A stretch of DNA of 21,068 bases from Candidatus Hodarchaeum mangrovi. Lineage in GTDB: Archaea; Asgardarchaeota; Heimdallarchaeia; Hodarchaeales; Hodarchaeaceae. This document shows, one piece after another, positions 19 through 18,018 of the stretch. The stretch is from assembly GCA_016839515.1 (NCBI GenBank), contig JAEOUE010000217.1, forward strand, positions 1 through 21,068. The letters run 5' to 3'. The notes beneath the pieces were generated by a model that saw only the letters and a list, made by a program, of their open reading frames with translations, did not search any database and was not told where the DNA came from. Each line of letters starts with the position of its first letter. The stretch's first letter is position 1. A program made the translations under genes and the position numbers.

Positions 19-813
19 TTAATCAACAGAAACAACATTGGAACTACTGAAGAATGAGGTAATATTGATTAAACTCGTATCAGAGGTCCAAATAGCATAC
101 ACATTTGGTGAAGTCCAATTAGAGACAGAAAGTAGATAGTTTTGATCAATCATTAAATAGAAACAATCACAACATTTTTTACATATAGTCAGTGGTAATT
201 CAGGAATACGTTCTGATTCTCTTAGTTTATTCATAGAAAATTGACATAAACCAGCATCAATCTTAATCCCAGACCTCTTTAACTCAAGTAAAACTGGTTC
301 AAAGTCAAAATATAGCTGGGGACTAGGAAAACGAATAAGTACCTCCTTTTCAGCATTTGGTAACTCATGATAAATTTTTCGAATGATATATTTTCTTCCC
401 TTAATAATAAATGCCATAGCAATAGGTATTGACGATGTTGACTCAAATAAAGGAGTCAACCGAATATTAAGCTCTGAAATAGCAACCTTTTTTTTCTTGA
501 AATCATTTTCCACTTGCTCTAGAAGATTATGAAGACCTTCTACTAATGGTACAACAATATAATGCTTAGGTGAAGTGTTTAAAACCATTATTAAACCCAT
601 TTGTTCAAGTTCGTTTAATATAAAATAGATTCTTGAACTTTTCACTCCTGTTGCCTTACAAAGATCACTAGCAGTAGCTTCTTTTTTTTTCACTAGTTCA
701 AGATAGACTTGTGCTAGTGATTGTGAAAGACCTGCAGTTATTAATAAATTTACAACCTCCTCTGAGTTAAAATCTTCGTTTGAGAGTGAAATTTTAGATT
801 TAAGACCTGCGAT
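19..813 (-). CDS. TrmB-family transcriptional regulator (N-terminal wHTH plus C-terminal effector domain with a Cys cluster); probable non-canonical ATC start at 813
   Basis: The frame stays open upstream of the ORF-track GTG (693) and adds the TrmB first helix: GLSQSLAQVYLELV-KKKEATASDLCKATGVKSSRIYFILNELEQMGLI. The C-terminal half resembles the TrmB effector domain (IKGRKYI...AEKEV...YLMIDQNYLL). SD GGAGGA at 826-821. Start position is inferred. Confidence 0.85.
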   Translation of the reverse strand: MAGLKSKISLSNEDFNSEEVVNLLITAGLSQSLAQVYLELVKKKEATASDLCKATGVKSSRIYFILNELEQMGLIMVLNTSPKHYIVVPLVEGLHNLLEQVENDFKKKKVAISELNIRLTPLFESTSSIPIAMAFIIKGRKYIIRKIYHELPNAEKEVLIRFPSPQLYFDFEPVLLELKRSGIKIDAGLCQFSMNKLRESERIPELPLTICKKCCDCFYLMIDQNYLLSVSNWTSPNVYAIWTSDTSLINITSFFSSSNVVSVD

Positions 814-838
814 GGTTCTATCCTCCTTTTTTTAAATT

Positions 839-867
839 TACTACTAACTACTATTAGTAATTAGTAG
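839..867. promoter_or_regulatory. Candidate TrmB operator: TACT-ATT-AGTA (849-859) nested in a CTACTAA/TTAGTAG inverted repeat (841-847/861-867)
   Basis: Palindromes read directly from the sequence. The core matches the TACTNNNAGTA pseudopalindrome known for Thermococcales TrmB. It lies between the divergent trmB and thioredoxin genes. Confidence 0.6.
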
Positions 868-872
868 CTAAT

Positions 873-881
873 CTTTATAAG
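873..881. promoter_or_regulatory. Candidate archaeal TATA box CTTTATAAG, usable on either strand
   Basis: Matches the TTTAWAA consensus, lies in the divergent intergenic region next to the operator. Confidence 0.45.
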
Positions 882-922: not shown

Positions 923-1528
923 ATGATTCATATGAATAAACAAGATTATTTTAACAAATTGTTTACAATTGGTATTTCTTATGAAAATTATTTTAATAAA
1001 ATTGATAAATATAAAGATAGGATGAATTCTAGTTTTTCAGCTGGTAAAAAAGCAGTAGAAAAGCTAACTCAAGAACAAATCGCACGATTGAATGAAAAAA
1101 TTCATGTACTTTGTATTGCAGAGAGTTGGTGCATTGATTGCGCAAATGGAGTACCACTAATTGCTTTACTAGCTGAGACAGTTACTAAGTGGGATTTTCG
1201 TATTGCTTCTCGTGATCAATTCAAAGAAGAATTTAGCATTTATTATTCAACTGCTGGAAGAATGAAAATCCCAGTAGTTATTTTTGCGGATGAAGACGGA
1301 GATGAAATTATACGTTGGGTTGAAAGGCCTATTCGCAGTTACCAACTATTGGGTCAATTACGTGATCAAAACCTATCAAAAGAGGAATTTATCCAAAAAT
1401 ATCATGATACACGAGAATTTGAACCCCCAGTTGTCTCACAAGCTATTCTAAACGAATTAATTTTTATAGCAGAAAAAGCTACTTCAATAGTTCATGTTAA
1501 CCCTCCTTCAAGAAAAAATTCTAGGTGA
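923..1528 (+). CDS. Thioredoxin-fold protein (Thioredoxin_9-like); start may be ATG 932
   Basis: AESWCIDC CxxC motif, cis-Pro loop KIPVVIF and WVERP, all typical of this family. Confidence 0.85.
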   Translation: MIHMNKQDYFNKLFTIGISYENYFNKIDKYKDRMNSSFSAGKKAVEKLTQEQIARLNEKIHVLCIAESWCIDCANGVPLIALLAETVTKWDFRIASRDQFKEEFSIYYSTAGRMKIPVVIFADEDGDEIIRWVERPIRSYQLLGQLRDQNLSKEEFIQKYHDTREFEPPVVSQAILNELIFIAEKATSIVHVNPPSRKNSR

Positions 1529-5203: not shown

Positions 5204-6133
5204 CTATTTTAAGGGAAATTGTTTCATTCTTTTAATTAACATTTCCTTACCTGTTTTTACCATCCCTGGTAGATTATTTTTATATCCAAAGAATATGTAA
5301 GCTAAACCTGCCCGTCCATATAGGAATTTCATCCGATTCACGAAGCCAGTATTGATTTCATACTTATAATTCTTTAGAATAACTTTTAAAAAAGAATCTC
5401 CCTCGTTAAAGAATAATAAATCTGCTGCAGGGTCATAAATTCTTGTTTCTTCAAAATCAACTATACCAGAAATATGTTTTGTTTTAGGATCATACAGGAT
5501 ATTTGATATATCAAAATCACCATGAATAACCTTCGGTTCAAACTCAAAATTCTCCTCTTCATCTAGAAAAATAGTAAATAATTTAGCAATCCATCTCTTT
5601 TGGGATTTAGTCAATAAAGGAAAAATTTCATCTTGGGTTTTTTGATAAAATGTTTTCCATTCTTGTTTATATCCTTTTAAGGAAAAATTTTGATTTGGAA
5701 ATGACTTAGTTAATTCAGGTGAATGAAGTTGTGACAAAAATGAACTTATATCTAATGATAATTGCTTTAGTACTTCCTTCTTTAAAGATAGAAAGATCCG
5801 AGAGAGTGGAATTCCATCAAGCTTCTCATACCCCATATATGGAGAACTTGGATCATCAGAAACAAATTGGGGGGTGGGAATAGAAATATTTAAGTGTTTT
5901 TTGAGTAAAGTGAGGGTCTTGACCTCATTCCTAATTAACTGGACTCCAGAGTCATTCCTAAAATATTGGTCAGGAAAACGAAAAATAAAATCATTCTTTA
6001 CTTCAAACACATTGTAAGTTCCATGATAAAAGAAATGAATATCTTCCTCTTTTAAATTTGAGAATATTCTTTGTAAAACTTTTAAAACTTCTTTATTTGA
6101 AATATCTTGGGGATTTCTTTCTTCATAAAAAAT
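5204..6133 (-). CDS. Aminoglycoside phosphotransferase (APH)/choline kinase-like phosphotransferase; start uncertain (ATT 6133 proposed)
   Basis: FIFRFP, HGDFDISNIL (Brenner motif), GIVDFEE, DPAAD. The frame is open upstream of GTG 6010 to a TGA at 6142-6140 and adds the nucleotide-loop strands IHFFYHGTYNV. Confidence 0.85.
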   Translation of the reverse strand: MFYEERNPQDISNKEVLKVLQRIFSNLKEEDIHFFYHGTYNVFEVKNDFIFRFPDQYFRNDSGVQLIRNEVKTLTLLKKHLNISIPTPQFVSDDPSSPYMGYEKLDGIPLSRIFLSLKKEVLKQLSLDISSFLSQLHSPELTKSFPNQNFSLKGYKQEWKTFYQKTQDEIFPLLTKSQKRWIAKLFTIFLDEEENFEFEPKVIHGDFDISNILYDPKTKHISGIVDFEETRIYDPAADLLFFNEGDSFLKVILKNYKYEINTGFVNRMKFLYGRAGLAYIFFGYKNNLPGMVKTGKEMLIKRMKQFPLK

Positions 6134-6134
6134 T

Positions 6135-7148
6135 TTAGATCACCCTACTTAATTTTGAATCCCGACCAATTTTCATTTCAGGAATGTACTTGTATCGATA
6201 AGTGGGTTCATTATCTAAAATTTTTTCGATGCTTTCCAATTGATTTTTAGTTAATTTAACTCCTGATGCTTGCGCGTTTTGCTCAATGTGCTCTGTTTTT
6301 GTAGCACCAGTAATAACAGAAGAAATTTCTTCCTTGCTTAAGATCCAAGCTAATGCTAATTGGGGTAGTTTTAGTTCATATTCATCAGCAAGAGTTTTTA
6401 ATTGTCTTAGTTTTTCTACTTCAGAATTAGTTCTTAGTATTTTTTTCCTAGTTGTCATCATCGCACGACTATCTAAAGGTATACTCTCTAAGTATTTCCC
6501 TGTTAAAAATCCTTCAGCAAGAGGAGAAAATACAGTAATCCCAATCCCATGGTCTTTACATACATTGAACTCATGCAATTCAGGGTCACGATCTAGCATA
6601 TTATACATTGGTTGTTCCACAATTGGTGGTTGACAGTATAATTCTTTTGCTACCCATTGCGCTCGTTCTAATTGATAAGAAAGCCAACAAGAAGTACCCC
6701 AATAATGAATTAACCCTTGACTAATCAAATCATCCATAGTACTTACGGTTTCAGACAATGGAGTATAATAATCAAAACGATGACAATAATAAATATCTAA
6801 ATAATCTGTTTGTAATCGATCGAGGGTTCCCTCAATACTCTCCATGATATGTTTTCTGCTTAGTCCCCTGTCATTAATTTCCTCTGACATAGGATAAAAA
6901 ACTTTACTTGCTATAACTAGCTTCTTTCTTTCAATAGTTGCATCAGTTAAAACATTTCCTATTATTTTCTCCGATTTACCGTTTTCATATGCGTCTGCTG
7001 TGTCGAAGAAATTAATACCTAGCTCAATGGCTCGTACTATTAAAGAATTGGTTTGTACTTCATTTAGATCATAGCCAATTGTAAGCCAAGAACCCAATCC
7101 TACCTCACTTATTCGTAATCCTGATTTTCCAACTTGCCTATATTCCAT
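6135..7148 (-). CDS. Aldo/keto reductase (Kv-beta-like/Tas-YghZ group)
   Basis: GLGSWLTIG, FFDTADAY, ASKV, GLSRKHI, YYCHRFD (D-Y-K-H tetrad), SPLAEG. ATG 7148 (MEYR) is the likely start. Confidence 0.93.
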   Translation of the reverse strand: MEYRQVGKSGLRISEVGLGSWLTIGYDLNEVQTNSLIVRAIELGINFFDTADAYENGKSEKIIGNVLTDATIERKKLVIASKVFYPMSEEINDRGLSRKHIMESIEGTLDRLQTDYLDIYYCHRFDYYTPLSETVSTMDDLISQGLIHYWGTSCWLSYQLERAQWVAKELYCQPPIVEQPMYNMLDRDPELHEFNVCKDHGIGITVFSPLAEGFLTGKYLESIPLDSRAMMTTRKKILRTNSEVEKLRQLKTLADEYELKLPQLALAWILSKEEISSVITGATKTEHIEQNAQASGVKLTKNQLESIEKILDNEPTYRYKYIPEMKIGRDSKLSRVI

Positions 7149-15076: not shown

Positions 15077-16477
15077 CTAAATTACTAAAGATAGCCCATC
15101 AATGACTAGACTGGGTGTTTCAACTCCGAAGGGAGTTACTTTTAGATTTCCACCGATCTGACGAATACTTTTTAATCCTGTATAAAAACTACCGGCAACT
15201 GAGACAGCTTTTAAAGGAGTCTTAAGTTCTCCATTTTCAATTAAGAACGCTGCATTGGCCACTGCAGAAAATTCTCCAGTTGATACATTGCTATGAAATA
15301 TTCCCATTGGCATTTCTTTAATATAAACACCTCTATCAATCTGAGAGATTAATTCCTCTTCTGAAAACTTCTTGGGTTCTACTAGAAAATTAGTTGCAAC
15401 AACAGCTGGTGACTCCTCATAAGGCAAACTACTAGGAAATATTCCACCACCTCGGGTACAATTACCTGTTGAATTTGTCCCAAAAATCTTTGCATAATAA
15501 TGATTAAAAAGAAAACTTTTGAGAACACCATTTTCAACAATATTAGTCTTTTGTTGTGGAATGCCCTCAGCATCGATTGCATGTGTATAGGCTCCAGTAG
15601 GATTCTGACCATCATCAAGAAGGGTGAAATCAGTCACAGCTACTTGATCTCCTATACGATCTGCAAGTGGAGACAATCCTTCTACAATATTACTTCCGTT
15701 TGATCCTGCACCAATTCCAGCCCGAATAAAGCAAGCTGAAGCCATATTATCCCAAACCGTAGGCAAAGATGTTGTTTCATTCAGAATCTTTCCGTTCAAC
15801 AATTTAACTGCTTTTCGTGCTGCTATCTCACCAAATCCTTGAATTTCAGGAATCTTCTCACGAGAAATGGCATATTCATAAGCATCTTTCCGATCATCTC
15901 CCTCAACAGCTTGGCAATAAAAAGAGGCTCCAGAGGAAGTTATTCGACTCGCTCTTTGAACACCATTTGAGTTGCCAACAGCAAAACCCCCCCAAAAGAT
16001 TCCCATTGAAAATCCAGTCATTTTTATTCGTTCATCAACCTGTTTAGCTTCATCTATCACTTGTTGAGACATAGGGAGAAGGTCAACTGCAGAGGAGATT
16101 ATTATATCATTTGATAAAATACCTTCAACTCCTCCTGGAATTGGATCAGGAAAGGATTGAAATCGTGAATCAGTTATTTTCAAGACGTCATTAAATGCTA
16201 ATGCTTCCTTTATATTAGCTTTTATTCGCTCTAGATCTACTCCACTTGATGAAGAAAAGCTGATTTTCTTTTCTTTCACTCCACCAACTACACGAATAGC
16301 ATTTCCAGCAATAATTCCGTCTGAACTCTCAACCACTCCCTGAGTTATATCTACACCAGATTTGTGTGCATAAAATAAATAGATTTCGTAAGCTACTTTT
16401 GAATCAAGTCCATGAGCATATTTTAATGCAGAATCAACAGTTGATAATAGCTCAGAATTTAAATTATCGAATTCCAT
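15077..16477 (-). CDS. pmbA: TldE/PmbA family protein
   Basis: DAEG, ENGVLKSFL, STGN, TGEFS and IENGE motifs; no HExxxH motif. Confidence 0.9.
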   Translation of the reverse strand: MEFDNLNSELLSTVDSALKYAHGLDSKVAYEIYLFYAHKSGVDITQGVVESSDGIIAGNAIRVVGGVKEKKISFSSSSGVDLERIKANIKEALAFNDVLKITDSRFQSFPDPIPGGVEGILSNDIIISSAVDLLPMSQQVIDEAKQVDERIKMTGFSMGIFWGGFAVGNSNGVQRASRITSSGASFYCQAVEGDDRKDAYEYAISREKIPEIQGFGEIAARKAVKLLNGKILNETTSLPTVWDNMASACFIRAGIGAGSNGSNIVEGLSPLADRIGDQVAVTDFTLLDDGQNPTGAYTHAIDAEGIPQQKTNIVENGVLKSFLFNHYYAKIFGTNSTGNCTRGGGIFPSSLPYEESPAVVATNFLVEPKKFSEEELISQIDRGVYIKEMPMGIFHSNVSTGEFSAVANAAFLIENGELKTPLKAVSVAGSFYTGLKSIRQIGGNLKVTPFGVETPSLVIDGLSLVI

Positions 16478-17910
16478 TAAACTTGTCCTCCAAATGTTAC
16501 TTCTGAAAAGATTATTTTTGGTCCCCCATCACCCACTGGTAGAGGAAATTGGTCTCCTTTCCCACATCCTCCAAAATATCCAGAACCTAATTCTAATTCT
16601 TTTGTAGCTCCTTCAACTTTTGTAAGTAAGTTTAAAATGTTACCAGAAAGACTTACCTCCCGTAATGGGTATTTTATTTCTCCATTCTCCACCCAGTATC
16701 CCCTGACAGCTTTAAAGACAAAGTTCCCATCTCCTTCGACTTGGCCTCCATATGATTGTATGGCATAAATCCCAGTCCCGAGCTTTTCTAGAGCTTCCTC
16801 CTCAGTTAAGTCTCCAGGAGCAAAATATGTATTAGTCATCCTAGGAATAGCTTGAAAAGTGAAATTAATAGCACGACAATTGCCAGTTGGAGATTGGTTC
16901 AAATGTTTAGCTGTACCACGGTTGTGTAGATAGTGCTTTAAGATCCCTTTATTAACAATAACAGTCTCTTTTGCTTTCATTCCTTGATCATCAAAAGGTA
17001 CTAAAAGCCCCCCATGAGTTTTAATATCAGGTACGCCGTTGTCTATTATTGTAACTATATCAGTTCCTAAACGTTCACCGATCTTACCTGTAATGGGAGA
17101 CGCTTCAATAACAACAAAATCTGCCTCCGATAAATGACCAAAGGACTCATGTGCTAAAACTCCCGTTAATTCATTTTCACTCAGGGCACGAAACTTTCCA
17201 GCAGGGCAAGCTTTAGCTTCTAATTGCTCATTAGCATTTTTCGCAGCAATCGATCCAAAATCTTCAGGCGTTTTACCCTTTTCCTCAAATATTTCTAATC
17301 CTCTTGTCCCTCCAAATCCTTTAGCTCCTATAACAAGGTCTCCTTCCTCGGTTTTTGAAGTAACTCTACACCTAAGATCAATTACTTCAAATTCCCAGTC
17401 TATTATACTTTGATCTGAATTAGTGAATAATTTTTGACCAAACATTTCTCCATATAAGGTTCGAATATTTTTGACATTTTTTCCACCAACCTTTGCAGCC
17501 TCAGATGTTCGATCTACAAGATTAATCTTATAATCCAAATCACGAGAATTGGGGTGAATTTTGATTAAACTGCCAAATTGAGGACCTGATGATTTAGCAG
17601 TAATAGAGGGTAAAGGATCAAAATCTAAGGGTAATTGTACGCTTGGAGAAATGGATTTAGCGAGTTTAAAGGCACGGGTAACGGTATCCATAATTTCTTT
17701 TGACTCAAGGCTTGCAGTAAATGAGTAACCAGCTGCTCCTTTGTAATAACAAGTTACACCAATTCCAGAACGTTTCCGGGAAAGGATTTTACTGTAGTTT
17801 TCATTCATCTTTTCCAGAGTTCTGAGGGCTAGATCATCATATCGAACGTCAACGAAGTCTGAACCTAACTTTTCTCCGTACTCAACCCCTTTTTGTAATA
17901 ATTCGAGCAT
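16477..17910 (-). CDS. tldD: TldD metalloprotease
   Basis: HESFGHLSEAD zinc motif, FDDQG, PRMTNT, CGKG. TAATG overlap with pmbA. ATG 17910 follows AGGTG. Confidence 0.93.
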   Translation of the reverse strand: MLELLQKGVEYGEKLGSDFVDVRYDDLALRTLEKMNENYSKILSRKRSGIGVTCYYKGAAGYSFTASLESKEIMDTVTRAFKLAKSISPSVQLPLDFDPLPSITAKSSGPQFGSLIKIHPNSRDLDYKINLVDRTSEAAKVGGKNVKNIRTLYGEMFGQKLFTNSDQSIIDWEFEVIDLRCRVTSKTEEGDLVIGAKGFGGTRGLEIFEEKGKTPEDFGSIAAKNANEQLEAKACPAGKFRALSENELTGVLAHESFGHLSEADFVVIEASPITGKIGERLGTDIVTIIDNGVPDIKTHGGLLVPFDDQGMKAKETVIVNKGILKHYLHNRGTAKHLNQSPTGNCRAINFTFQAIPRMTNTYFAPGDLTEEEALEKLGTGIYAIQSYGGQVEGDGNFVFKAVRGYWVENGEIKYPLREVSLSGNILNLLTKVEGATKELELGSGYFGGCGKGDQFPLPVGDGGPKIIFSEVTFGGQV

Positions 17911-18018
17911 TCTGTACACCTTTTTTTTGAAAATAACGCATCAGATACTATATCTTATAAACAAGATTTGAGTAAGGGGAGAATTGAAAAGTATTTCCCT
18001 AAAGACTAAAGGTTCCTA

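Follow-up and report, generated by a model that had tools for sequence, protein, structure and literature searches.

Archaeal translation initiation is taught as relying on AUG, GUG and UUG only. NCBI translation table 11 lists ATT, ATC and ATA as start codons as well, and in bacteria pcnB is a further case of such a start beside infC. In one paper (PMC4705826), the E. coli infC gene is given an AUU start, and the initiation factor aIF1 of Saccharolobus solfataricus is described as discriminating against AUU in vitro. Among Heimdallarchaeia, an ATT start has been proposed for a tubulin gene, in a remark within a methods section (PMC13394414). In the articles that we searched, this single ATT remark is what we found, and no systematic description of AUU, AUC or AUA (AUH) starts in Asgard archaea was encountered.

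Here we describe a TrmB-family transcription regulator gene that probably starts at ATC. It lies in a 21,068-nt stretch of DNA from Candidatus Hodarchaeum mangrovi, hereafter called the window, which corresponds to contig C162 of a 4.0-Mb MAG (348 contigs, 91% complete, 33% G+C).

An open frame upstream of the called start

The elements of the locus are as follows.

19..813, minus strand: TrmB-family transcription regulator gene as re-annotated here, 264 codons plus stop, with its proposed start at ATC
691..693, minus strand: GTG, first canonical in-frame start, picked in automatic gene calling (224-aa form, P0002)
694..810, minus strand: codons 2-40 (variable N-terminal tail and first wHTH helices), lost with a start at GTG 693
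811..813, minus strand: ATC, proposed initiation codon, from the orthologue alignment and the contigs of three runs
821..827, minus strand: Shine-Dalgarno (SD) sequence AGGAGG(A), 8 nt from the last G of GGAGG to ATC
832..834, minus strand: in-frame TAA closing the frame, upstream of the SD

The frame opens at 831, directly after TAA 834-832 on the minus strand, and comprises 270 codons. Its first ATG, GTG or TTG is GTG 693-691, at codon 47, and is thus preceded by 46 start-less codons. This confirms, from the sequence, that no canonical start is available between 831 and GTG 693, as a sequence-only reading of the window had noted; the first-helix peptide quoted in that reading is indeed encoded, at 747-691. 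No SD-like motif is present in the 30 nt upstream of GTG 693. Farther upstream, GGAGGA (826-821) is followed by a 7-nt spacer (820-814) and by ATC (813-811), all on the minus strand.

The Pfam TrmB domain (PF01978) matches frame residues 33-95, covering positions 4-66 of the 68 in the profile, with 51.6 bits for a cut-off of 25.6. Because the match begins at residue 33, a protein begun at codon 47 would lack 14 residues of this domain; the DNA-binding domain would be cut, as had been proposed. The Regulator_TrmB profile (PF11495) is passed marginally, with 24.3 bits for a cut-off of 22.2 and over half of its length (3-121 of 233), and phmmer aligns query residues 33-199 with residues 19-189 of TrmBL2 from the PDB (E 1.5e-4). 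The layout is that of TrmB, TrmBL1 and TrmBL2 of Thermococcales (PDB 5bqt, 5box, 5bpd), with a TrmB-type wHTH at the N-terminus, then a long helix, and a further domain at the C-terminus. Unlike these proteins, the regulator stays far under the NCBIfam equivalog cut-offs, with 40.8 bits versus 650 for TrmBL1, 27.5 versus 500 for haloarchaeal TrmB and 19.9 versus 530 for TrmBL2. An AlphaFold2 model of the ATC-started protein, of low confidence (mean pLDDT 61, pTM 0.42), shows helices at 17-26 and 31-55. If the gene starts at ATC, its correct product would have 264 residues. The public 224-residue call is devoid of the helices with which the DNA-binding domain begins, and expressing or modelling this form would mean working with a crippled protein.

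The window stretch, or part of it, is present in 20 listed runs from 8 studies, with no RNA run among them. Of four runs compared with it, three, belonging to three studies, yielded contigs, and the fourth (X5) yielded none. Record 2 of run X1 spans 769-1364 with 0 differences. Record 5 of run X3 (300-1305) differs solely by 748 A>G, a synonymous AAT>AAC change within the N-terminal extension, and record 11 of run X4 (768-1500) differs at 916 and 1430. Positions 811-827, containing the ATC and the SD, are identical to the window in all three. Run X1 may be the window's own source. X3 and X4, on the other hand, belong to other studies and years; with their private SNPs, they represent independent populations. 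Hence, the ATC at 813-811 is real and not a sequence error: at the place where reads might have revealed an ATG, the contigs of three runs from three studies have ATC.

Upstream of the SD, the alignment of 12 upstream regions revealed two further elements, in an intergenic region shared with a divergent gene.

841..867, no strand assigned: near-perfect 27-nt palindrome, flanked by the TATA-like box and the SD
873..880, minus strand: TATA-like box upstream of the palindrome, conserved in the 12 aligned upstream regions
923..1528, plus strand: divergent thioredoxin-like gene (Pfam Thioredoxin_9)

According to the usual position of archaeal promoters, the TATA-like box would make the mRNA leadered, with about 35 nt of 5' UTR. 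The genome has a single copy of the palindrome, which is the probable operator of the TrmB-family regulator. The thioredoxin-like gene is the divergent neighbour in all 11 orthologous loci that hold this flank. The C-terminal domain of the regulator contains an invariant cysteine cluster (C211, C214, C215 and C217; residues 211-217, window 163-183, minus strand), which is unusual among sugar-sensing TrmB proteins. Together with the conserved thioredoxin-like neighbour, this cluster suggests that the signal differs from that of Thermococcales TrmB and is possibly redox-related. With the conserved TATA-like box and palindrome in addition, the arrangement suggests a local, autoregulated and possibly redox-linked pair. 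A 4Fe-4S protein gene is located at 1575-2426; considered along with the cysteine cluster and the thioredoxin-like gene, it hints at redox or metal sensing.

Shine-Dalgarno use, orthologues and selection

Genome-wide, 114 of 3054 long ORFs (3.7%) have GGAGG at most 20 nt from their first canonical start. Spacers of 6, 7, 8, 9, 10 and 11 nt occur 9, 39, 13, 21, 19 and 10 times, respectively, with a mode at 7. The ATC of the TrmB-family gene has a spacer of 8, counted from GGAGG, and it is thus placed within the 6-11 nt range of the genome's canonical starts. The chance of finding GGAGG at one of these six spacers before a given codon is about 0.4%. The window is not poor in GGAGG (30 copies versus 24 +/- 4.4 expected), so that the weight of the observation rests on the position of the motif before a codon fixed independently by homology. 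An obvious SD is lacking in most genes of the window, in agreement with two reviews that describe SD sites as rare in Lokiarchaea (PMC12993045, PMC7531240). A search with RF01959 did not find a 16S rRNA in the MAG; the anti-SD sequence used is therefore the consensus from the literature, as given in PMC7531240, and not the genome's own.

GGAGGA before the ATC had also been described as the strongest SD of the window. It is of top strength, but it shares this rank with the GGAGGA preceding the ATG at 16477, the only other well-placed copy in the window. The latter ATG belongs to the downstream gene of an adjacent pair encoding PmbA/TldD-type metallopeptidases (15077-17919, minus strand). Another GGAGG (756-760, minus strand) is internal to the N-terminal extension. 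It corresponds to Glu-Glu-Val codons, is not conserved in orthologues and has no start-like codon at a functional spacing, with TTA at 8 nt and ATA at 14 nt.

Of 21 other genomes of the genus, nine gave protein matches with 65-82% identity, and six metagenome loci were obtained in addition. Among the 16 loci, L005, L027 and L028 are without their 5' end, and L024 and L025 repeat L008, which leaves 11 distinct sequences with a complete 5' end. In each of these 11, the codon aligned with the ATC is a canonical start, ATG in eight cases and TTG in three.

ATG at the aligned codon: L004, L006, L007, L009, L010, L023, L026, L039
TTG at the aligned codon: L008, L011, L012

None of the 11 starts at the position equivalent to GTG 693. 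The extension of about 40 residues is shared by all 11 orthologues, with a start aligned with ATC. Overall, the proposal of a non-canonical ATC start behind a strong SD, made by the sequence-only reading, is supported, as both the reads and the orthologues came out in its favour.

The same picture emerged at the protein level. From 55 database hits, with source labels such as 'Candidatus Hodarchaeales archaeon' and similar Asgard names, 19 full-length homologues (257-272 aa) were picked for alignment. The first column is M in 18 of them and L in the remaining one, and six invariant columns (N22, L23, G28, A34, E39 and L40) precede the residue encoded by GTG 693. Shorter homologues of 154-245 aa (P0020, P0029, P0041, P0043, P0046-P0050, P0053 and P0055) were left out of the alignment; these may be fragments, calls at internal starts or further cases of non-canonical starts.

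The nearest relative, L023 (90% identity), has an ATG behind the 5-base SD AGGAG, whereas the window has ATC behind the 6-base AGGAGG. No other of the 12 sequences has an SD as long as that of the window, in which six contiguous bases are complementary to the 16S rRNA 3' end, versus 3-5 elsewhere. A three-codon in-frame indel is the sole difference in tail length between the window and L023. Changes between these two were polarised by parsimony with L004 as the outgroup. On the window's branch, codons 2-40 accumulated 4 synonymous and 0 non-synonymous changes, and the rest of the gene 15 and 6, respectively. This corresponds to an overall dN/dS of about 0.09, from small counts and with an ATG>ATC change that is not datable within the branch. 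Even with these small counts, the gene shows purifying selection on this branch, and the N-terminal extension has the pattern of coding, constrained sequence. Of the 12 orthologous sequences, that of the window alone has ATC, which points to a lineage-specific change that could be recent.

Candidate near-cognate starts elsewhere in the genome and genus

We scanned the genome for GGAGG at a spacer of 6-11 nt from a codon that is separated from an upstream in-frame stop by at most 40 codons devoid of canonical starts, opens a downstream frame of 120 codons or more and is followed by no canonical start in the next 10 codons. This yielded 42 non-canonical sites, including 16 at ATT (7), ATC (5), ATA (1) or CTG (3). 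The proportion of these four codons, 16/42, exceeds that in controls with other spacers or the reverse-complement motif (23/198; Fisher p 1e-4). With all SD 5-mers, it is 42/195 versus 93/769 in controls (p 8e-4), an excess of about 15-20 sites. Genome-wide candidates were chosen by their SD, so that the coupling between codon and SD is partly built in; the orthologues in relatives are free of this bias.

The Pfam domain extends well into the start-less stretch in 5 of the 10 candidates tested, designated below by their contigs.

C311: Fe-ADH_2, candidate ATT start, Pfam-supported
C265: GT2, candidate ATT start, Pfam-supported
C209: PhzF, candidate ATT start, Pfam-supported
C198: GNAT, candidate ATT start, Pfam-supported
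C219: Transket_pyr, candidate ATC start, Pfam-supported

The other five candidates were set aside: those on C16 and C96 (both ATC) matched no Pfam family, a CTG candidate on C113 had a weak nSTAND3 match alone, the domain of the C299 candidate begins past the next ATG, and the extension of the C148 candidate was supported solely by a signal-peptide-like stretch.

Orthologues were compared for several of these genes. The Fe-ADH_2 gene is G1PDH-like (G000:C311:11483-12571, minus strand; 317 bits with NCBIfam NF002022, under the cut-off of 413) and has ATT at its start in this genome. Orthologues in the genus are among L041-L053 and L074-L082; the 19 compared have GGAGG followed by ATA in 9 cases, one of which also shows in-frame canonical codons upstream, canonical starts in 6 and unclear starts in 4. 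A subclade formed by L075, L077 and L082 may start at CTG. Outside the genus, the gene has canonical starts. The PhzF gene (G000:C209:24435-25340, minus strand) has ATT behind GGAGGT; of its orthologues (L055-L067), the two closest have ATA or ATT behind GGAGGT, whereas in the other 11, which are more distant, a weaker AAGGT precedes ATG or GTG. This exchange of start-codon strength for SD strength is the same as that in the TrmB-family gene. For the transketolase-like gene, five of five orthologues have ATG behind GGAGG.

The window contains a second gene with a putative non-canonical start.

5204-6144, minus strand: APH-family phosphotransferase gene, extended and with its SD

This gene is called as 5204-6010, with 43 start-less codons upstream of the call. 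An ATT (6133-6131) follows a 7-base SD (6144-6138) that overlaps the stop codon of the preceding aldo/keto-reductase gene, and the automatically chosen GTG 6010 lies 41 codons downstream of this ATT. With the extension, the Pfam match starts at profile position 8 instead of 23. Among 12 orthologous 5' ends, G015 has ATT with the same type of SD, five have ATG at the aligned codon, and six have ATG or TTG 1-2 codons upstream. Judging from these sequences, the APH-family gene most likely begins at ATT 6133-6131. Hence, several genes of this genome seem to start at ATT, ATC or ATA and to be cut short by standard gene callers, a warning against using callers limited to ATG, GTG and TTG on Asgard MAGs.

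Proposed initiation at AUC, its alternatives and known systems

Genuine SD-led initiation at AUC 813-811, with the TrmB-family gene intact, is in our judgement the probable explanation. The codon, its homology to the starts of relatives, the functional SD spacing, the purifying selection and the parallel genes are shown by the sequences; that ribosomes initiate at this AUC, with which tRNA and how efficiently, is what we infer. The mRNA would be leadered, and pairing of AGGAGG with the 16S rRNA 3' end would set the P site of the small subunit over AUC, which would be read by the initiator Met-tRNA with a third-position mismatch. The protein, presumably with Met as its first residue, would share its starting point with all relatives and retain the full winged-helix DNA-binding domain. 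The near-cognate codon would be inherently weak and compensated in part by an SD longer than that of any orthologue, with a probably low, SD-dependent translation rate as the net result. It is plausible that the combination of a strong SD and a weak codon might hold the regulator at a low copy number, as the sequence-only reading suggested. In the sequence data, AUH codons are coupled with strong SDs. The discrimination of S. solfataricus aIF1 against AUU (PMC4705826) suggests that the efficiency of AUC may be very low. In the present genome, the aIF1 (SUI1) gene is present and starts with ATG (G000:C341:350-562, minus strand). SUI1 Pfam scores range from 60.9 to 68.5 bits in this genus (19 genomes) versus 68.8 to 83.6 in other Heimdallarchaeia families (17), in a comparison of kin that are not independent. 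No initiator tRNA was found in the MAG, either among the 19 tRNAs detected by ARAGORN or in pattern searches for an initiator-type anticodon stem, which gave nothing tRNA-like; the two CAT tRNAs begin with G, and no GAT tRNA is among the 19.

A different view of the locus is that the start codon was lost by an ATG to ATC change, leaving a gene that is silent, decaying or expressed as a GTG-693 product truncated of its first wHTH helices. The restriction of ATC to this species among the 12 orthologous sequences would fit such a loss, as would the 224-aa form (P0002) produced by gene callers. We regard it as unlikely, because populations from three studies, distinct at other SNPs, all retain the ATC, the branch shows a dN/dS of about 0.09 without amino acid change in the extension, and the SD has become stronger, not weaker, than in the 90% relative. 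In addition, GTG 693 has no SD, and AUH starts recur in the genome and genus. That the true codon is ATG, hidden by a sequencing or assembly error, is close to refuted: the MAG is fragmented into 348 contigs and the window may itself derive from one of the three runs, but the X3 and X4 contigs, from different studies and years, both have ATC and an unchanged SD.

Initiation at another near-cognate codon within the extension is very improbable. ATT 792-790 and ATA 741-739 are both in frame, and the internal GGAGG at 760-756 is real and precedes the ATA by 14 nt. However, neither codon lies 6-11 nt behind an SD, this GGAGG is accounted for by unconserved Glu-Glu-Val codons, the invariant N22 and L23 would be lost with a start at ATA, and the starts of orthologues align with ATC. 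An equally slim chance is given to a reading of AUC by an Ile-tRNA or a special initiator, yielding a protein that starts with Ile. The MAG, with its 19 detectable tRNAs and none of initiator type, leaves room for such a reading and gives it no direct support; we know of no precedent in archaea for a non-standard initiator reading AUC. Moreover, this position is occupied by ATG, TTG or ATC depending on the orthologue, and ATG alternates with ATA or ATT in other genes; such free exchange is better explained by a single initiator that misreads in a wobble-type manner than by a tRNA dedicated to AUC.

Beyond SD-led initiation at this AUC, it is conceivable, if somewhat short of an even chance, that AUU, AUC and AUA are regular, and not accidental, start codons in this genus of Hodarchaeales and perhaps in Asgard archaea as a whole. 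They would serve about 0.5-1% or more of the genes, including the G1PDH-like lipid gene, always with an extended SD, and lineages would move back and forth between 'ATG + weak SD' and 'AUH + strong SD', the two states in which one start site can be set. If so, published Asgard proteomes, including eukaryotic signature proteins, would be systematically truncated at their N-termini. The Asgard order of this genome is placed closest to eukaryotes, and AUH use in it would offer a testable handle on start-codon stringency before eukaryotic scanning evolved. The contrast between 'ATG + weak SD' and 'AUH + strong SD' also constitutes a natural allele series suited to reporter assays.

The TrmB-family gene resembles the bacterial SD-led AUU, AUC and AUA starts, such as that of E. 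coli infC, in having a third-position near-cognate codon behind an SD and ATG-started relatives. It differs from infC in that the initiation machinery is archaeal and eukaryote-like (aIF1, aIF1A, aIF2) and does not use IF3, and in that the gene encodes a transcription regulator and not an initiation factor. Since the aIF1 gene starts with ATG and the gene with the weak start belongs to the TrmB family, autoregulation of the infC type is not indicated. As in the Heimdallarchaeial tubulin gene (PMC13394414), where an upstream ATT restores the fold and a likely ribosome-binding site stands at a plausible distance, the proposed start lies upstream of the called one. Unlike the TrmB case, the tubulin proposal involves ATT and not ATC, another protein family and a single gene, without population, orthologue or genome-wide evidence. 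SD-led near-cognate starts are thus already known from bacterial precedents, and the TrmB-family gene would be a well-supported further example, to which it adds population evidence, a matched relative with ATG and a weaker SD, and a pattern at the level of the genus.
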